Origin: Thermoproteus sp. CP80 | GTDB taxonomy: Archaea > Thermoproteota > Thermoprotei > Thermoproteales > Thermoproteaceae | NCBI RefSeq assembly: GCF_002077075.2 | Contig: NZ_LCWM02000015.1 | Coordinates: 6,288 to 38,287 of the forward strand | Direction of reading: 5' to 3' | Length of the DNA stretch: 32,000 nt | Part shown: piece after piece, positions 202-27,002 of the stretch | How the letters are laid out: each line of letters starts with the position of its first letter | Numbering within the stretch: position 1 is the first letter of the stretch | Translations under genes and position numbers: made by a program | Notes under the pieces: model-generated | Told to the model about the DNA's origin: nothing | The model's database searches: none | Seen by the model: only the letters and a program-made list of their open reading frames with translations

Positions 202-1080
202 TCATGGCTGGGCGGCGCAGGCGTTGAGCCTCTTGACGAGGTCTGGGCCGTAGTACAACACGCCCGTCAAGACCTCGACGGCGTTTGCCAGCTTCATCGC
301 GGCCTTTGCCTGTCTGCAGCTCATGACGCCGCCTACGGCTATTATAGGCAAGTCCCCGCCGAGGTGCGCCCTGGCCTTTTCGAGCATCCTCATCATGGCT
401 GGGTAGAGCCAGAGGCCGCTTAGGCCGCCTCTGCCGACGCCTATACGGGGATCGGCGACCGGCAACGTATTGGTGATCACGAGGCCGTGTCCCCCTCTTC
501 TGGCCAGCTCGAGGTAGGCCCTGAGCTCCGACGTAGGGCCCGTCTTTATGAACAGCGGCTTTTTGGACTCGAGGAGAGGCGCGGCCTTATCCCACATGCC
601 TTTATACGTGGGGCTGGAGAGGTTGACCTCGATGGCCCTCACGTTGCTGCCGTACCTCTCAATATAGCGTATCTGCTCGAGAATCTCCCCTGCCGTGAAG
701 CCCGCGACGCTGACAAAGAGGGGGTACTCCACCTTCGATATTCTGGAGAGCACCACGGGCAGGCCCGGGCTGGGCAGGCCCATGGCGTTGACCAGAGAGC
801 GGGGCCTCAGCCTCGCCGTCAGCGGGGGCCTGTTGCCCCTCCTGGGCCGCGCGGTGGTGGAGCCCACCACGATGAAGCCCGGGCAGAAGGCCGACAGCGC
901 CCTGGTGTAGAGGCCGTCCTTGTCGAGCCCCGCGGCTATCCCCACGGGGCCGTTCGTCTCGACCGGGCCCACGCGCCACCTGACGCCCGGCCTGCAGGGA
1001 GGTAGAGGCAACGAGAAGAGCGCTCTGCCCAGCCTCCTGGTCACCTCGGACGGTATCAACTCCGTCAGGCGGGCTAGCAC
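202..1080 (-). CDS. pyrD: dihydroorotate dehydrogenase (class 1 PyrD)
   Basis: ORF 202..1221 has DHODH-type motifs (GIAAGLDKDG, VGSTT, NLSSP, ITNT, GGLSG, AVGGV). The first ~47 codons of the ORF overlap pyrE in another frame. I therefore place the start at the GTG at 1080 (VLARLTE...), which overlaps the pyrE stop by 7 nt. Confidence 0.85.
   Translation of the reverse strand: MLARLTELIPSEVTRRLGRALFSLPLPPCRPGVRWRVGPVETNGPVGIAAGLDKDGLYTRALSAFCPGFIVVGSTTARPRRGNRPPLTARLRPRSLVNAMGLPSPGLPVVLSRISKVEYPLFVSVAGFTAGEILEQIRYIERYGSNVRAIEVNLSSPTYKGMWDKAAPLLESKKPLFIKTGPTSELRAYLELARRGGHGLVITNTLPVADPRIGVGRGGLSGLWLYPAMMRMLEKARAHLGGDLPIIAVGGVMSCRQAKAAMKLANAVEVLTGVLYYGPDLVKRLNACAAQP
341..419 (-). repeat. pyrD-internal segment that is duplicated (inverted) at 4205-4283
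   Basis: It matches the reverse complement of 4205-4283 at 78 of 79 positions (by-eye alignment, single mismatch at 414). It encodes ...LYPAMMRMLEKARAHLGGDLPI... of PyrD. Confidence 0.9.
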
Positions 1081-1655
1081 TTGAACTTCTCCAGATACTC
1101 GCGTACCTCGCGGTAGCGGGTCGGCCCTATGAGGTCTCTTATGTCCTCCAGGACCTCGCCCATCCTGTAGGCCGACCTGACCTGCGTCCCGGTCTCCCGC
1201 TCGACCCTCTGGGCGCCGCACTGCTGTCTGTCGAGGAACACGGCGGCCGCGACCACGTTGGCCCCGGCCTCCTTGAGCTTACCAACAGCATCCACGATCG
1301 ACTCGCCGGTGGTTATGACGTCGTCCACCACCACTACGCGCGCGCCTTGCCAGACGGCGCCCTCTATCTCCCTCCGGGAGCCATACCACTTCTTGCTCTC
1401 TCTGACGTACGCAATAGGGCGAAACATGTTGAAGCCCAGTATCGAGGCGTAGGGTATGCCGCCGGTGGCGACCCCCACTATCACGTCGAACTCGATATCC
1501 TTCAGGAGGTTGCTGTACTTGCCGATCACCCACCTCAGGAGGTCCGGATAGGCCAGAACCTGCCTCAAGTCGACGTAGTAGGGGCTGCGGCCGCCGCTCG
1601 ACAGCTGGAAATCCCCAAATTTAATTATCTCGCGCTTGACGAATTCATCCCACAC
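1074..1655 (-). CDS. pyrE: orotate phosphoribosyltransferase
   Basis: 193 aa with a PRPP-binding motif (VVVVDDVITTGES) and GVATGGIPYA. It is adjacent to and translationally coupled with pyrD. Confidence 0.9.
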   Translation of the reverse strand: MWDEFVKREIIKFGDFQLSSGGRSPYYVDLRQVLAYPDLLRWVIGKYSNLLKDIEFDVIVGVATGGIPYASILGFNMFRPIAYVRESKKWYGSRREIEGAVWQGARVVVVDDVITTGESIVDAVGKLKEAGANVVAAAVFLDRQQCGAQRVERETGTQVRSAYRMGEVLEDIRDLIGPTRYREVREYLEKFKC

Positions 1656-3473: not shown

Positions 3474-4187
3474 GTGAAGAAGTCCGTCCTCAAGGCCCTG
3501 GGGCTGGAGGAGAGGGACCTGGCCATCTACGCGCTTTTGGTAGAGCGGGGGGCGCTCACGGCGAGGGAGATCGCCGAGATGGTCGGCATACCCTATACTA
3601 AGATATATCAACGCCTAGATGCGCTCGAGGGGCAGGGCTTCTTGGAGCGGATCGAGGGGCGGCCCGCCAGATATGCCGCCCGGCCGCCCGCCGAGGTCTA
3701 CAAGGGCTTGGTCTCCTACGCCTCGACCGCCCTCAAGGCCTTGAAGGAGCAGCTGGACCTCCTGCAGACCCTCTACGAGAGCAGATATGGGAAGGCCTCC
3801 ACTACCTTCATAGCCCTTATAAGAGGCGACAAGGTGATGGAGCTCCTCGAGGAGGTGATCAAGGCGAGCGATTCGGCCGTCTACGTGGCGTTGCCCTATC
3901 CGGAGCTCGCAACGCCGCGGGTGATGGCCGCAATCGAGGAGGAGTCCAAGCGGATCGAGGTAAAGCTCCTCTTGGCCAAGAAGATCGCTAAATATGTCTA
4001 TTCGCCTCCGCGGGTCGACGCGAGAGCGCTGGAGGATATGTTCGGCGGAGGGGCTCTGGGGAATTCGGCTCTGCTGGTGGTGAGACATGGGGAGGGGCTC
4101 CTCGGCATACATAGCAATGAGCGCTACCTCCTCGACATAGCGAAGACCTATTTCAACTATCTATGGGACAGGGCTGAGCCGGTATAG
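3474..4187 (+). CDS. TrmB-family winged-helix transcriptional regulator
   Basis: 237 aa. The N-terminus (LGLEERDLAIYALLVERGALTAREIAEMVGIPYTKIYQRLDALEGQGFLERIEGRPARY) is a typical TrmB HTH, followed by a C-terminal TrmB-like domain. GTG start. Confidence 0.8.
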   Translation: MKKSVLKALGLEERDLAIYALLVERGALTAREIAEMVGIPYTKIYQRLDALEGQGFLERIEGRPARYAARPPAEVYKGLVSYASTALKALKEQLDLLQTLYESRYGKASTTFIALIRGDKVMELLEEVIKASDSAVYVALPYPELATPRVMAAIEEESKRIEVKLLLAKKIAKYVYSPPRVDARALEDMFGGGALGNSALLVVRHGEGLLGIHSNERYLLDIAKTYFNYLWDRAEPV

Positions 4188-4204
4188 CGTAGCCAGGAGG
4201 CCTT

Positions 4205-4283
4205 GCGGCGTCTGGCTCTACCCAGCCATGATGAGGATGCTCGAAAAGGCCAGGGCGCACCTCGGCGGGGACTTGCCTATAAT
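4205..4283 (+). pseudogene. orphan 79-bp fragment of pyrD (inverted duplicate of 341-419)
   Basis: Same match as above. The fragment starts 18 nt after the trmB-like stop. It explains the spurious ORFs 4228..4416(+) and 4153..4431(-), which carry PyrD-like or anti-PyrD peptides. Confidence 0.9.
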
Positions 4284-4306
4284 GTTCGAACACGCAATCC
4301 TTAGAC

Positions 4307-4400
4307 GGTGCGTCGATTCCACTTGCGCCCGCCGCCGTCCGGACGCCCGGCGCGTCGGTTCCAAATGTCCGATCGGCCGATTCGAAATGCCAATTTTTCG
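4307..4400 (+). repeat. GC-rich module copies upstream of tnpB (about 1.5 units plus a GGCCGAT tail)
   Basis: GGTGCGTCGATTCCACT (4307-4326) and GCCGCCGTCCGGACGCCCGGCGCGTCGGTTCCAAATG (4331-4367) are followed by TCCGATCGGCCGATTCGAAATGCCAATTTTT. Homologous to 5676-5726 (+), 5959-5991 (-), 6001-6033 (-) and 24615-24671 (+). Confidence 0.75.
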
Positions 4401-4406
4401 GCGTTT

Positions 4407-4460
4407 CCCTCCCTAATTTGAACCGGCTCACAAAGGTTTTTAGTTCAACATAAGGGAGGC
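4407..4460 (+). other. imperfect hairpin just upstream of tnpB (possible left-end structure)
   Basis: CCCTCCCTaatTTGAAC-(20 nt)-GTTCAAcataAGGGAGG. The arms are complementary: TTGAAC/GTTCAA, and CCCTCC(C)T/AGGGAGG with one unpaired C. The function is inferred only. Confidence 0.35.
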
Positions 4461-4473
4461 CGAGGGATGGGAT

Positions 4474-5649
4474 ATGGGAAAGTACAGAGCGTTGGTGTTG
4501 AAATATAATCTGCTACGGCTCCCGCCGGAGGTCGCCGAAAAGATCCCGGCGCTCCTCCGGGTACAAGAGGAGTTCAGAAAATGGGCGGCGGAATGGGCCA
4601 AAAGCGGGGGCTCTTTGCCCCCGCCGGAACGTCCGCTGAAATATTTCGCCGAAGAGTTTCTCCATGCGGGTAATGCGCTAGGGCTCAAAGGCTTAAAGAA
4701 AAACGGCATAGAGGTAAGGGGCGCAAGGCCCCCGCTGATCTTCGACGCCCAGTTGCGGTTAAGCAAAGAAAGAGATAAAAGTAGGGGCATCCTTGTCGAT
4801 ATACCGAGGAGGGGGGTGAGGATCAGGAAGTGGAATAACGGTAACACGATCACGCTTCCGCTTACAGATAAGGCTGTAGAGTTGATATTGGAGAGAACAA
4901 GGGAGGGTGGAAAGCTCGTGATGGCTGCCGTCTGGATCGGGAGAAGCAGGAGAAGTCGCGCCGTGAAGTTGTACGTAGCCCTCACGTTCAGGCGCGAGAT
5001 CGCACCGATGGAGGCCGAGAGGCTTCTCGTCGTCGACGTGAACGCCCTCCACAACGGCCTCGCGTGGGCCGTGGTGGAGGGGGAGAGGATAGTGGAAAAG
5101 GGAGTGTTGAAGCCCAACATATCCAAAATCCTACATCTACAGAAGGTGATCGCCAGGCTCGATAGTGTATGCGCCGAGAAGGACGAGAGGTGCGGCGAGG
5201 CCATGGCCGTGAAGAGCCGCATCTGGCGGCTCTTGCGCGAGTGGGAGGACGAGGCGGCGAAGAAAATCGTCGGCCTCGCCAGGCAGTACAAAGCCGCGGT
5301 TGTCGTCGATATGCCAAACGACGAGTCCATGAGAGAACTGAAAGAGGGCGGCTACGCCTCCGAGAAGAAAGTCTTTCTAAACTTCGGCCGTATAAGGAGG
5401 AGGCTCAGAGGCCTCGCGGAGTGGTACGGCGTGCCGTACCGCGAGGAGAGGCTGTATTCGACTGTTTGCCCCCGCTGTGGGAGAAAGATGGAGGAGTTGC
5501 CGAATAGGCGCGTGAAGTGTCAATGCGGCTTCGAGGCCCATAGGGATGAGGTGCCCATATACTGGGCTCAAAGGCGGTTTCCCGACCTGATAACCCCCTC
5601 TTTTTCTTCCTCCTCCGCCGTCCTACGCATTACGGCGCCGGCCGCCTAG
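4474..5649 (+). CDS. tnpB: TnpB (IS200/IS605-family OrfB, RNA-guided nuclease-like); no tnpA nearby
   Basis: 391 aa with a RuvC-I-like LLVVDVNALHNG. The C-terminal zinc ribbon CPRCGRKM...VKCQCGFEAHRD is followed by a RuvC-III-like HRD. The RuvC-II position reads VVVDM rather than the usual hhhEDL. The low-complexity tail (SFSSSSAVLRITAPAA) may be translation of an RNA-coding region. Confidence 0.85.
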   Translation: MGKYRALVLKYNLLRLPPEVAEKIPALLRVQEEFRKWAAEWAKSGGSLPPPERPLKYFAEEFLHAGNALGLKGLKKNGIEVRGARPPLIFDAQLRLSKERDKSRGILVDIPRRGVRIRKWNNGNTITLPLTDKAVELILERTREGGKLVMAAVWIGRSRRSRAVKLYVALTFRREIAPMEAERLLVVDVNALHNGLAWAVVEGERIVEKGVLKPNISKILHLQKVIARLDSVCAEKDERCGEAMAVKSRIWRLLREWEDEAAKKIVGLARQYKAAVVVDMPNDESMRELKEGGYASEKKVFLNFGRIRRRLRGLAEWYGVPYREERLYSTVCPRCGRKMEELPNRRVKCQCGFEAHRDEVPIYWAQRRFPDLITPSFSSSSAVLRITAPAA

Positions 5650-5675
5650 AGCCGCATGGGGGGCGTCCGGCGGAT

Positions 5676-5726
5676 CCGCCGTCCGGGCCGGCCCCTCCGC
5701 CGCCTTCACGGCGCGTCGGATCGGCC
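5676..5726 (+). repeat. GC-rich module copy immediately downstream of tnpB
   Basis: CCGCCGTCCGGGCCGG...CACGGCGCGTCGGATCGGCC. It shares GCCGTCC and CGGCGCGTCGG...ATCGGCC with 4331-4378 and lacks the TTCCAAATGTCCG segment. Confidence 0.6.
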
Positions 5727-5769
5727 GCACCTCCGCGGGCCCTGTCCGCCCTCGGCCACGCGTCTGAGC

Positions 5770-5856
5770 CATGCCGACAGGGAATACCTAGAGGGCGAAA
5801 CCAACAGGGGTGTACCCCCTGACAACCCCGCCTTCAGACTACTCCCTGTCGGCATG
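5770..5856 (+). ncRNA. 87-nt nested hairpin downstream of tnpB (candidate omega-RNA / right-end structure)
   Basis: Perfect 14-bp outer stem CATGCCGACAGGGA (5770-5783) / TCCCTGTCGGCATG (5843-5856). Inner 7-bp stem GAGGGCG (5791-5797) / CGCCTTC (5829-5835, one G-U pair). Apical GGGG-TGTA-CCCC (5807-5818). The strand and the RNA nature are inferred. Confidence 0.45.
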
Positions 5857-5949
5857 AGAATCCACCGAGGGGGCAGAATCGGGGTCGATTCGCGCCGACG
5901 AGGTGCCGCCCCGCCGGCCCTAAGCGGAACCGAGAAGGCGGAGGAGGAA

Positions 5950-6285
5950 GGCCGCGAGTGGAACCGACACGCCGAGAGAGGGGTCGGCGGCGAAGGCAAG
6001 TTGAACCGACGCGCCGATCCCCATGGACGGCGCGATAAATCGTTATATAGGGTAGCGCGTCTTCTCTCATGGAGAGGCGCCCCCGCGGGCCCGAGGGGCA
6101 GGGCCCGGGTCTGCCGTTTCGCCGCTTGGGTTGGGGCCGGAGAGCCCCGCCCAAACGCTTATGCGCGTAGAGGAGGAGGGGGCGCGCTCCCTACCCGGCC
6201 GGCGCCCCAGCCCGGGGGGCCTTGCGCCTCCCGGGCTCGAGAGCCCCCCTCGTCCGGCCGGAGTTGAAAGGGGGGCATCTGATGC
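5950..6285 (-). repeat. GC-rich structured element, copy B (homologous to 24421-24680 in reverse orientation)
   Basis: The reverse complement aligns colinearly with 24421-24680 through these blocks: CTCCGGCC, CCCGGGC(T/G)GGGG, GGGCTCTCCGGCCC, GCGGCGA, CTCTCCATG and GCGCCGTCCAT(G/A)G(G/A)GATCGGCG. It is dense in GC hairpins and has no credible ORF. Confidence 0.8.
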
Positions 6286-6320
6286 GAAGAGATTTTGATG
6301 GCGAAGAGATTTATAGATGG
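6284..6320 (+). repeat. tandem direct repeat at the outer edge of copy B
   Basis: GCGAAGAGATTTTGATG (6284-6300) is followed directly by GCGAAGAGATTTATAGATGG (6301-6320). Confidence 0.8.
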
Positions 6321-6422
6321 GTGCCTCGATCCCCTTCGTGATGACTAGAGGGTGAGCCCTCCGATGGGTGAGGCTGGTCTGGAGCGCTGATAAAGACGGC
6401 GTGGGCTCCGTCCTGGGGCTGG

Positions 6423-7088
6423 CTACAGATATACGTACTCCATCCAGCCCAGTTGAGGCAGGGAGGAAACGAGGCCGCCTATTATGCGTCTGTACAAGGT
6501 CTCCGTCTCGACCACCTTGGCCTTGGCGGACGTGGCGTCTCCTCCAGCTATCCTTATAAACGCTCTGTACCTTTCGCCGGAGAGCCGGCGGGCCGCGATG
6601 GAGACCTCCTCGACGTTAGAGGGCAGGACGAACGGGGGAGGCCTCTTCGCTACGTACTGCGGGGGAATGGGGCTCGACCTGGCTATTATCTTGCCTATCC
6701 CCTGGGCCGGGCGCTTCCGGCGCCCTCTACCGCCGACCACATGTATCAACGAGGGGCGGGACTTAAGGGCCAGCAGGTACAGCAACGTCGTGTAGTCGAG
6801 CGCCTTCTGGAGCGCCTGTATGGACTCCAGCTTTATCTCCTTGGCGTCTATCTCCAGCGTAAGCCTTCTGCATCCGTTTAACTCCCTCGATATAAACTCC
6901 ATCAAGTTCTCGTAGAGATTGACTGCGTCGTACAACACGACGACCTTGCCGTAGTCGTTAAACGCCAGGCCGTAGGGTTCCACCTTGGCCACCACGTAGT
7001 TGTCGCCTCTATAGACGCCGACCTCGCCGAGGTCTGAGACCACGAAAACGCCGCAGTTCTCCTGCATCGCCTCAATCCTTCCTCGCAA
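6423..7088 (-). CDS. hypothetical protein, last gene of the crenactin/arcadin operon (possible arcadin)
   Basis: 221 aa. Its start overlaps the stop of the SMC-like gene by 17 nt (an alternative Met at 7067 lies 5 nt after that stop). No motif recognised. It has a basic linker (GGRGRRKRPAQG). Confidence 0.6.
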   Translation of the reverse strand: MRGRIEAMQENCGVFVVSDLGEVGVYRGDNYVVAKVEPYGLAFNDYGKVVVLYDAVNLYENLMEFISRELNGCRRLTLEIDAKEIKLESIQALQKALDYTTLLYLLALKSRPSLIHVVGGRGRRKRPAQGIGKIIARSSPIPPQYVAKRPPPFVLPSNVEEVSIAARRLSGERYRAFIRIAGGDATSAKAKVVETETLYRRIIGGLVSSLPQLGWMEYVYL

Positions 7089-24420: not shown

Positions 24421-24680
24421 GCATCCCCTCTTCATCTCCGGCCAGGCGATGGGACTCGGGAACCCTCCCGGGCGGGGGCCCCAGCCGGTCGGGGCTCCCT
24501 CTTCGTCGTGAGGCATTTGGACGGGCTCTCCGGCCCGTGCGGCGAGCGGCCGGCCCTCGGCCGGCGGAGTCTCTCCATGGTGATACGTTACGTCTCTCCG
24601 TACGATGATCTGTTGCGCCGTCCATAGAGATCGGCGTGTGATTCCAAATGGCCGATAGGCCAATTTAAAATATCGATTTT
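24421..24680 (+). repeat. GC-rich structured element, copy A (homologous to the reverse complement of 5950-6285)
   Basis: It begins 2 nt after the rrp42 stop. It shares the colinear blocks listed for copy B, and its 3' part (24615-24671) carries the module GCGCCGTCCATAGAGATCGGCGTGTGATTCCAAATGGCCGATAGGCCAATTT. The ORFs listed here (24368..24625, 24388..24663) are Arg/Pro/Gly-rich artefacts. Confidence 0.8.
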
Positions 24681-24785
24681 ATTATAAGGCCAGTGGGCAC
24701 ATACCCAATTATGTGCAACAACGCTTGGAGGCGTGGTGCCAGCCTCATAGCAACAAAGACTTATAGATAGGTTGCTTCGGCGGCC

Positions 24786-25604
24786 GTGAGAGGTCTGTGG
24801 GTGGTGTTAGTTGCGGCGGCTTTGGCCACCGTGGCGGCCTTGACGGCCGTGGTAGCTGCGCAGAGGGCCTTAGTATACATTGTGCCGCTGTATTCCTACC
24901 CGTGTTGCGGCTACGAGCAGGAATGGGGGAAGTTGCTCAACCTCCACACAGACAAGGAGGTGTGGGTGGTGGTCAACGTGGACGACGGGCCCGGCTCTTC
25001 GGTGGACTCCACATACGTCTCTGTCATCAGCGGGCTTAAGCAGAGGGGCTTCAAGGTGCTGGGTTACATATACAGCTCCTACGGAAGGAGAAGCCTGGAG
25101 ACGGTATACTCAGAGATGGACAGGTGGATAAGGTTCTACAACGTAGACGGCTTCTTCATAGACGAGGTGTCCACGAGCCTGGAGACCTATAGCTACTACT
25201 CTTCGATATACAGCAGAGCCAAGAGCCTTGGCAAATACGTCGTGCTGAACCCCGGCACCAACATAGACCCGAGGTTCTTCAACATTGCGGATAAGATAGT
25301 GGTGTTCGAGTCGCCTCTGGAGGAGTACGTAAACTTCAGCTACCTGGACTACTCCTCTGCGGCGCCCGACAGGGTGTGTACAATTGTTCTAAACACGCCG
25401 CCGGACAAGGTGGACTACGTCGTACAGAAGGCCGTCGCAAACGGCAGCAGGTGCGTCTACGTACACGACAGAGCCGACAAGTGGCAAACTGGCGACTCGG
25501 CCTACTTCTACCTGAGCCCCTATTTGAGTTGGCTCTCACTCCCGTTTTTGTTAATACAGATATGCGTCGACGAGCAGGTCGGCCGGGGCCGTCGCGGGGC
25601 GTAG
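24786..25604 (+). CDS. secreted spherulin-4 / GH135 (Sph3)-like protein
   Basis: 272 aa with an N-terminal signal/TM (LWVVLVAAALATVAALTAVVAA). The following pattern (YIVPLYSYP...W..L......VWVVVNVDDGPG, GYIYSSYGRR, VDGFFIDEV, VVLNPG) matches my memory of the spherulation-specific family 4. GTG start, with CTTATAGATAGG about 24-35 nt upstream. Confidence 0.65.
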   Translation: MRGLWVVLVAAALATVAALTAVVAAQRALVYIVPLYSYPCCGYEQEWGKLLNLHTDKEVWVVVNVDDGPGSSVDSTYVSVISGLKQRGFKVLGYIYSSYGRRSLETVYSEMDRWIRFYNVDGFFIDEVSTSLETYSYYSSIYSRAKSLGKYVVLNPGTNIDPRFFNIADKIVVFESPLEEYVNFSYLDYSSAAPDRVCTIVLNTPPDKVDYVVQKAVANGSRCVYVHDRADKWQTGDSAYFYLSPYLSWLSLPFLLIQICVDEQVGRGRRGA

Positions 25605-26805: not shown

Positions 26806-27002
26806 CGGGCGTGATACGGGCGGCGGCCATGCCTACGGCGACCGCGAAAGCCCCGCCCTAGGGCTGTCCCAGATGCCTGGAGGGCCCAATGCGCCCGACC
26901 CCCGCCCTAGGGGGCAGGCCTTCCGTCCTTTGCAGGGAGCCGCATGGGGCCGATAATTGAATGTTATGGGAAAAGTATTAAAGGGGGGCCGACCTCATCC
27001 AT

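Follow-up and report, generated by a model that had tools for sequence, protein, structure and literature searches.

What do the short GC-rich modules do that surround the tnpB gene in the window, the whole 32,000-nucleotide stretch of Thermoproteus sp. CP80 contig NZ_LCWM02000015.1 that was analyzed here? An initial annotation of this archaeal DNA (G+C content, ∼58%) had noted that modules on the two sides of tnpB face in opposite directions and had offered four options for them: sites for a transposase, sites for a regulator, recombination scars, or parts of RNA stems. Of these, sites for a regulator fit best. On balance, we lean toward the view that the conserved boxes within the modules are phased, promoter-proximal DNA sites belonging to the cassette of a predicted guide RNA, and that this cassette was mirrored around tnpB in the subclade that includes the window.

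The modules form a genuine repeat family that goes with tnpB. When up to three mismatches were allowed, the core CGGCGYGTCGGTTCCA was matched five times in the window compared to an expectation of 0.58, and none of 100 shuffled sequences reached five. The matches, at 4306-4321(+), 4348-4363(+), 5709-5724(+), 5959-5974(-), and 6001-6016(-), are all near tnpB. The left modules are on the plus strand and the right ones on the minus strand, as had been reported, and a 58-nt inverted repeat with 78% identity (4306-4363 and 5959-6016; self-BLAST E = 1.6e-8) brackets the gene. The copy listed near 24.6 kb, in what is here termed copy A, is homologous to the arrays on both sides of tnpB (24607-24653 aligned with 5995-6041 on the minus strand and also with 4348-4397 on the plus strand). 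Other listed sites fared less well. The copy placed at 5676-5726 is doubtful; only CGGCGCGTCGG was matched, with three mismatches, the TTCCA end is absent, and the orientation rule is broken. This stretch belongs to a different conserved block behind tnpB. A tail motif adjoining the modules had been listed at two positions, with a shortened form at a third, and its pattern is at chance level (three matches versus 0.75 expected; 4 of 100 shuffles reached three). The tails at 4375-4398 and 24650-24671 are nevertheless homologous, each comprising a degenerate innermost box and the tnpB-side spacer, but no similarity was detectable for 26948-26962, which was rejected as a chance match.

BLAST of window segments placed the modules at the inner edge of a unit of ∼320 bp (5957-6274 in the window) with homologues in more than 40 loci. 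The related loci were collected with a protein-profile scan that gave 80 metagenome loci and 6 (distant) genome loci, the source genome not being among them. The unit is reversed and upstream of tnpB in ∼30 loci and direct and downstream in a few. In the alignment of its copies (A3), the order is one to six boxes, a TATA-like element, ∼20 nonconserved nucleotides, and a conserved GC-rich block that starts with CAUGGAGAGG and ends with GGCCGGAGUUGAAAGGGGG, after which similarity drops abruptly. The stretch 5950-6285 had previously been regarded as an element in its own right, but its outer ∼210 nt is an RNA of the same cassette as the modules. The association of the modules with tnpB and with this stretch held up in related DNA: among 91 loci, boxes with no more than two mismatches were all on the plus strand upstream of tnpB and all on the minus strand downstream, and at least one box was present in 38 of 42 nonredundant RNA cassettes. 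The parts found around tnpB in the window are the following.

4306-4321, plus strand: left box "a," CGGTGCGTCGATTCCA, located by core search and by alignment with complete left cassettes; its 5' arm and the promoter and RNA further out are missing.
4331-4363, plus strand: complete left module "b" (GCCGCCG, 10 nt, CGGCGCGTCGGTTCCA), 42 bp from box "a."
4373-4398, plus strand: degenerate innermost left box TCGGCCGATTCGAAATG with a conserved spacer, which aligns with GCATGCCGATTCCAAATG of the paralogues and is homologous to 24650-24680.
4474-5649, plus strand: tnpB, 391 amino acids.
5926-5942, minus strand: degenerate box on the inner side of the right array, GGAACCGAGAAGGCGG, identified in the window by eye and equivalent to AGCCGCCTCGGTTCCA of the paralogues (a pattern taken from the right arrays of loci L029, L036, L037, and L043).
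5959-5991, minus strand: right module "c" with box CGGCGTGTCGGTTCCA, which starts 108 nt upstream of the RNA start, on the RNA strand.
6001-6033, minus strand: right module "d" with box CGGCGCGTCGGTTCAA, which starts 66 nt ahead of the RNA start; the GC arm of the module borders directly on the TATA-like box.
6036-6054, plus strand: transcription factor B recognition element (BRE)/TATA-like element of the RNA gene, GATAAATCGTTATATAGGG, assigned by eye from its conserved position in alignment A3.
6066-6276, plus strand: scaffold of a probable TnpB guide RNA (ωRNA), ending in GAGUUGAAAGGGGGG; covariance-model match of 194.6 bits, with compensatory pairs, its position in basal loci, and the element boundary as further grounds.
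6279-6298, plus strand: putative guide segment CTGATGCGAAGAGATTTTGA, the flank that would be read through from the scaffold, proposed from the loss of conservation after GGGGG-YR(Y) and from filled/empty junctions.

The position of the boxes is linked to the RNA gene. They share the conserved core TCGGCGYGTYGGTTCCA and recur with a period of 42 to 43 bp (∼four helical turns), the spacings being 42 bp in 25 cases, 43 bp in 4, and 33 bp in 6. Counted from the RNA start, the first box begins 65 to 69 nt upstream in 22 of 38 units and 101 to 114 nt upstream in 14, and box starts keep a fixed register to the RNA start at -66, -108, and -150. The boxes lie at variable distances, 59 to 153 nt, from the tnpB start codon (ATG). 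The GC arm of the outermost box abuts the TATA-like element. The arms decay without compensation, and the energies of the hairpins that they could form are mostly unremarkable (z = -0.2 to -4), which favors a double-stranded DNA site.

The case for a structured RNA comes from covariation. RNAalifold on 32 copies gave 44 pairs, 16 of which had compensatory double changes. For the structure with a candidate pseudoknot, 96.8% of the cells were paired compared to 91.0% in shuffled alignments and 37 to 60% in slid controls, and double-change cells numbered 96 versus 34 in shuffles. All seven pairs of the hairpin in columns 153-159 and 190-196 vary on both sides. G-U pairs are frequent and identify the outward-reading strand as that of the RNA. 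A hidden Markov model (HMM) detected the RNA beside tnpB in 51 of 92 sources, most of those without a match having less than 260 nt of upstream flank, and covariance model R1 added 16 basal loci. In Rfam 15, no family matched the window at its gathering score, and nothing relevant was found at E of ≤10 within 4100-6500. A tRNA, a tmRNA, and a known Rfam family were rejected as identities for the RNA after searches that gave no matches.

The RNA ends where the mobile element ends. Conservation stops after GAAAGGGGG-YR in alignment A3, and in three comparisons of filled and empty sites (L054/L042, L042/L054, which are reciprocal empties, and L057/L051) the insertion boundary lay 2 to 3 nt past the terminal GGGGG. 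Read-through from the RNA would therefore copy flanking DNA, as in ωRNA guides. The other mapped boundary is ∼50 nt past the tnpB stop; both are away from the boxes. In one-sided elements the boxes are internal, at neither mapped end, and the ends are asymmetric. In the two complete filled/empty pairs the junctions were ambiguous by 4 nt (TGAG) and 2 nt (CC), and there was no common target motif and no fixed-length or consistent target-site duplication (TSD). Elements of the IS200/IS605 family make no TSD and insert 3' of a fixed tetra- or pentanucleotide. Comparison of tnpB loci, which had been suggested as a way to define the element ends and a flank resembling a target-adjacent motif (TAM), gave the ends but no TAM; the TAM-side sequences of the three empty sites (..ACGGCGC, ..TGGGCGG, and ..GTCGGTA) show no clear motif. 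Like known ωRNAs, the RNA family is adjacent to tnpB, has a conserved secondary structure, and has a scaffold end that coincides with the element boundary. The usual ωRNA position, downstream on the same strand and overlapping or abutting the 3' end of tnpB, is found only in basal relatives; the RNA of the window begins 421 nt beyond the tnpB stop codon, with its own TATA-like box and no overlap with the open reading frame (ORF). From these sequence comparisons, the RNA at 6066-6276 is most likely the guide RNA of the neighboring TnpB.

The relatives indicate how the arrangement in the window may have arisen. In 18 basal loci, including one in a Thermoproteaceae metagenome-assembled genome, the same RNA is downstream of tnpB on the same strand, 17 to 100 nt away and without boxes, and in Pyrobaculum oguniense TE7 it is also downstream on the same strand, ∼550 nt from tnpB. 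In ∼30 sister loci the RNA is upstream of tnpB and divergent. In a neighbor-joining tree of the TnpB proteins, the canonical layout without boxes (class I) is basal, the divergent layout with boxes (class II) is a derived clade, and the mirrored layout (class III; the window, L029, L036/39, L037, L043, and L014) is nested inside class II. One inversion, of the tnpB cassette with respect to the RNA gene, is enough to explain class II. In class III, a second cassette is located beyond a block that contains a nested palindrome, with additional ORFs in longer elements. Another rearranged layout was seen in L063, in which two RNA copies, 233-383(+) and 514-704(-), are head-to-head upstream of one tnpB.

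The initial annotation was right that the layout departs from that of classical IS200/IS605 elements, the two ends in the window's subclade being mirrored cassettes. It had described terminal inverted repeats (TIRs) ∼1.65 kb apart; the inverted bracketing stands, but the repeats are a mirrored cassette duplication rather than transposase TIRs at element ends, because in most relatives the boxes are one-sided and internal. The left cassette of the window is cut at 4305/4306, with the promoter and RNA lost and two boxes kept (4306-4363), and HMM and covariance-model searches found no RNA copy to the left of box "a." The cut cassette abuts a fragment of a dihydroorotate-dehydrogenase-like gene, and the same truncation is present in L015, L019, L032, and L039.

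These results suggest the following model. A cassette would comprise one to six boxes, a BRE/TATA-like element, and an RNA of ∼210 nt whose 3' end is the end of the mobile element, and transcription, predicted to begin at the TATA-like box, would run into flanking DNA as it does for the ωRNA (reRNA) of TnpB. The ancestral layout would have had the RNA directly behind tnpB and no boxes. In the derived Thermoproteaceae clade, tnpB and the RNA gene would have become divergent, with the boxes between the two promoters, and in the window's subclade a second cassette would have been added as a mirror image beyond the 3' side of tnpB, so that box arrays bracket the gene as imperfect inverted repeats. 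The window would then hold a complete right cassette (5959-6276) and a left one reduced to two boxes. The boxes, aligned on one face of the helix, may bind a putative protein that would govern ωRNA transcription and, in divergent layouts, also that of tnpB. A broader version is possible, though doubtful: in this hyperthermophilic lineage, the guide RNA would have become an independent, promoter-driven cassette and been mirrored so that one nuclease is loaded with guides from both flanks (two-ended homing or retention), the boxes would be operators through which a dedicated factor coregulates RNA and nuclease, and recombination between the long mirrored cassettes would shuffle tnpB alleles among chromosomal sites.

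Several observations weigh against this model. The most important is that the right box arrays of L025 and L040 end the element with no RNA behind them; the left boxes of the window also persist without their RNA. Arrays can thus remain at junctions whether or not the RNA does, which is how end-binding sites would behave. No candidate box-binding protein is encoded in the window's element, and published phased arrays have two to three helical turns (PMC2995911) compared to four here. The alignment alone was used to place the TATA-like box and the start of the RNA. A single-sequence fold of the RNA was no better than shuffles (z = -0.68), and the structural case is covariation, thermodynamic stability being uninformative in this GC-rich sequence. 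The candidate pseudoknot, in which the loop CCCCC would pair with the 3' GGGGG, is invariant and so has no covariation support.

The persistence of arrays at junctions is what would be expected if they were subterminal sites for a transposase or recombinase acting in trans, with the inverted arrays as the working ends of a TIR element and tnpB as cargo, much as multiple end sites serve Tn7, Mu, or (as IR/DR repeats) Tc1-like elements. Arrays indeed flank tnpB in opposite orientations in the window, L029, L036/39, L037, and L043, their copy numbers at the two ends are unequal (1 to 3 versus 2 to 6), their boxes are helically phased, and the element sequence of L025 and L040 ends with the right array, host genes coming next. 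Symmetrical ends are also found in TnpB lineages linked to DDE transposases (PMC10691335). However, in ∼30 one-sided loci the boxes are internal, 220 to 450 bp from the RNA-side end and with no partner at the other end, the mapped boundaries are away from the boxes, and no consistent TSD was found. No transposase gene was present among the loci inspected, nor was a transposase ORF present in the window element or in the complete L029 element, and the register of the boxes is locked to the RNA start. This explanation is unlikely, although it is a real contender. It is quite unlikely that the modules are functionless, whether as tandemly duplicated promoter-proximal DNA or as scars of repeated recombination at the junction created by the inversion of tnpB relative to the RNA gene. 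Boxes do appear together with the inversion that gave the divergent layout, their number varies from 0 to 6, and breakpoints occur at array edges (4305/4306 in the window, L025, and L040), but paralogues with TnpB proteins only 60 to 70% identical have a conserved 17-nt core, while loops and spacers drift, and a strict 42-bp period with a fixed distance to the RNA start is kept in 36 of 38 units.

Most modules can be folded (CGCCG-N8-11-CGGCG), the one at 6001-6033 with -12.8 kcal/mol and a z score of -4.05, and TnpB elements classically move through the action of TnpA on hairpins, which raises the question of whether the modules are single-stranded DNA or RNA hairpins, like the subterminal imperfect palindromes to which the Y1 transposase TnpA of IS200/IS605 responds, or stems of a transcript. 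The other copies fold like shuffled sequences (z = -0.2 to -1.9), and the left arm varies (CGCCA, TGCCA, CGTCA, and TACCG) against a constant right arm, CGGCG; covariation was looked for in the module hairpin, and none was present. Hairpins of IS200/IS605 elements are on the same strand at both ends, whereas the modules are on opposite strands. The modules also precede the TATA-like box and are not part of the conserved RNA. The loci showed no tnpA in a search that was not exhaustive: no Y1_Tnp domain occurred among the called neighbors on the inspected contigs, and no systematic tnpA search was made. A role as hairpins, including the RNA stems that had been suggested, is therefore very unlikely. 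We keep our slight preference for the reading of the boxes as promoter-proximal DNA sites. In a viral sequence collection, the box pattern gave 28 mostly single matches, judged to be chance (the expectation was not computed), none with the RNA or tnpB nearby, and the 3' end of the RNA gave 0 matches.

The remaining features of the element and its solo copy are as follows.

4399-4473, plus strand: tnpB-proximal control region, TTTGAACCG...TTCAACATAAGGGAGG, conserved among paralogues, with candidate promoter and Shine-Dalgarno-like motifs read by eye.
5770-5856, no strand assigned: nested palindrome with four GACAGGG motifs in the conserved block behind tnpB, found by inverted-repeat search and present in ∼30 related loci.
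24425-24581, minus strand: degenerate solo RNA ("copy A") with internal deletions, found with a covariance model (51.8 bits, E = 5e-10), nhmmer, and alignment A3.
24616-24680, plus strand: single module of copy A, GCGCCGTCC...TCGGCGTGTGATTCCA, with the tnpB-proximal spacer, found by repeat search, self-BLAST, and alignment.

The tnpB product matches Pfam PF07282 and, below its cutoff, the NCBIfam guided_TnpB model, and it was compared as a profile with TnpB-like nucleases of the PDB. RuvC-I (D188) and RuvC-III (HRDE; D358) are kept, and a zinc ribbon is present. The RuvC-II glutamate is replaced (IVVDVP versus IAVEDL in the comparison of the family profile with the PDB nucleases), and D279 is invariant. 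TnpB groups with a rearranged RuvC-II have been described (PMC10691335), and the replacement would be consistent with these groups. The 290 homologues, down to ∼60% identity, are labeled Thermoproteus or Pyrobaculum; the closest, 98% identical, are from Yellowstone Thermoproteus sp. metagenomes. An exact-sequence look-up of the window TnpB returned no record. Loci L007 to L013, L023, and L024 represent the same chromosomal locus as the window (98 to 99% identity).

The tnpB allele at one chromosomal site differs between strains. When window positions 4150-4473 and 6288-6450 were compared with L019, L015, L032, and L036/L039, the flanks were 90 to 99.7% identical and the TnpB proteins 75 to 83%. 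The tnpB of L014 is 99% identical, yet its right flank is that of L029 and L043. These differences point to allele swapping via common cassettes or to recent movement.

The palindrome at 5770-5856 folds as DNA with -27.3 kcal/mol (z = -7.2) and may be a terminator, a protein site, or the end of an inserted unit. In some loci (for example, L017, L027, and L032) it occurs twice, on both sides of an antisense cargo ORF. This ORF, found in longer elements and absent from the window, encodes 234 to 275 amino acids (L036 3189-4016(-) and L021 2745-3479(-); P0121-P0181). Its family is restricted to Thermoproteus and Pyrobaculum; full-length members have 440 to 478 amino acids and an LTMWLGDG motif, and the short forms stop exactly there. 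No Pfam or NCBIfam family matched it. An AlphaFold2 model had a mean predicted local distance difference test score (pLDDT) of 70.7, and Foldseek gave no significant match and a weak LAGLIDADG-like one (I-DmoI; probability, 0.92; 75 columns). The product cannot be named as the box-binding factor.

Copy A has no tnpB. The 3' end of its RNA abuts the stop codon of an exosome Rrp42-like gene, and a Spherulin4-like gene comes next on the other side of the cassette. There was no evidence for independent amplification of solo cassettes in the window or in 307 kb of related loci. Host genes begin right inside former cassettes, a Spt4-like gene after the right array of L025 (L025 2700-2851) and the Spherulin4-like gene in the window (24680-24790), and cassette remnants may thus supply promoter-proximal DNA to adjoining genes. 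An apparent 300-bp indel in L007 (versus 5969-6270) was rejected as proof of a mobile 5950-6285 element, since it is an assembly artifact; in this Thermoproteus sp. CIS_19 scaffold (L007 5398-5447), a gap filled with pUC polylinker (GGGGATCCTCTAGAGTCGACCTGCAGGC) and Ns mimics a deletion of the RNA gene.

Other observations concern the surroundings of the two cassettes. The dihydroorotate-dehydrogenase-like gene (202-1221, minus strand) has a 3' stretch of 79 to 90 nt that is duplicated in inverted orientation (341-430 and 4195-4283; identity, 99% for 79 nt and 95.6% for 90 nt); the duplicate adjoins the truncated left cassette. The copies bracket 3.8 kb with genes for a radical-SAM enzyme and a TrmB regulator, which suggests an inversion or duplication linked to the loss of the left RNA; Rad50 is also encoded in the window. 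Positions 1-95, which are 89 to 96% identical in most loci, are a piece of a block with a small Cys-rich ORF; in the longer elements L025, L029, L030, L040, and L043, this block separates the palindrome from the right box array. The window therefore starts with a remnant of a second element. The scaffold end of the RNA (window 6264-6276, alignment A3) reads (A/G)(G/A)UUGAAAG-GGGGG, and its 8-mer AUUGAAAG/GUUGAAAG resembles the 8-nt CRISPR RNA (crRNA) 5' handle with which Pyrobaculum CRISPR repeats end (ATTGAAAG and GTTGAAAC; PMC3396285). This likeness may be a coincidence or a common processing signal. In the would-be guide flank, 6282-6314 is an imperfect tandem duplication (GATGCGAAGAGATTTT and GATGGCGAAGAGATTTA) that is also present in L036/L039. 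A candidate C/D-box small RNA is located at 6334-6392 (plus strand), ∼60 nt past the 3' end of the RNA, with C box GUGAUGA at 6339-6345 and D box CUGA near 6386; Rfam models sR3, sR23, and sR53 matched at E values of 0.09 to 0.7, below their gathering scores.

To our knowledge, the phased upstream boxes have no counterpart in known TnpB-ωRNA systems. The searchable literature yielded no description of an autonomous promoter, a mirrored duplication, or phased upstream boxes for a guide RNA. Iterated direct repeats inside long inverted ends, in unequal numbers, are known from the TnsB sites of Tn7, from Mu, and from the inverted repeat/direct repeat (IR/DR) ends of Sleeping Beauty; here, in contrast, the boxes occupy the inner margin of the inverted region, do not reach the ends of one-sided elements, and stay in register with an RNA gene. 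In the published descriptions found, the guide RNA belongs to the 3' end of tnpB and, as a general rule, directly follows the gene (PMC10691335). As in the TnpB-ωRNA (obligate mobile element-guided activity [OMEGA]) systems of IS200/IS605-type elements such as ISDra2, there is a nuclease gene with a structured RNA whose scaffold ends at the element end and whose guide would come from the flank, and basal relatives of the window TnpB have the same downstream, same-strand RNA. The window's clade differs in that the RNA has its own TATA-like promoter and no ORF overlap, is upstream and divergent in sister loci, and can be mirrored; the window TnpB differs in its replaced RuvC-II glutamate, and no TnpA was found in the loci seen. 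The asymmetric ends of the IS200/IS605 family, with subterminal hairpins on one strand and without TIRs, are absent from the window's subclade, but one-sided relatives do have asymmetric ends.

A tnpB gene between inverted terminal repeats also occurs in DDE-linked elements with symmetrical ends (IS630-type "DDE-6" and others), and eukaryotic Fanzor is found in TIR transposons. Here, there is no DDE transposase, the repeat is a guide-RNA cassette of ∼320 bp whose termini are RNA 3' ends, and most relatives have one cassette; a DDE-type TIR transposon would have a transposase ORF, boxes at its mapped termini, and a fixed TSD, none of which was found. The solo cassette at 24425-24680 resembles the palindrome-associated and miniature inverted-repeat transposable element (PATE/MITE)-like derivatives of IS200/IS605 in being an end-only remnant without tnpB, but it is a single degenerate copy with internal deletions. 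Archaeal Lrp-type regulators (Ss-LrpB and Ptr2) bind clusters of helically phased sites beside promoters (PMC2995911). Their sites are likewise several and imperfect, on one helix face, directly upstream of BRE/TATA and between divergent genes; they differ in a spacing of two or three turns rather than four, and the box here is asymmetric, with a 17-nt core and a loose GC arm. We regard this likeness as an analogy of mechanism rather than as a sign of membership in the Lrp family.

The arrays around tnpB illustrate that apparent TIRs at such a gene need not mean a TIR transposase. Cas12 descends from TnpB-ωRNA systems, which are under development as compact genome editors. The Thermoproteaceae lineage would offer a thermostable TnpB with a delimited scaffold of ∼210 nt and a predicted guide boundary, a natural case in which both flanks may serve as guides, and, in the motif TCGGCGYGTYGGTTCCA with its 42-bp period, a means of finding the binding factor. 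In this lineage, the probable guide-RNA gene is a separable unit with its own predicted promoter, located upstream of and divergent from tnpB or at both ends of the element, and the acquired array of phased boxes hints at dedicated control of guide-RNA supply.

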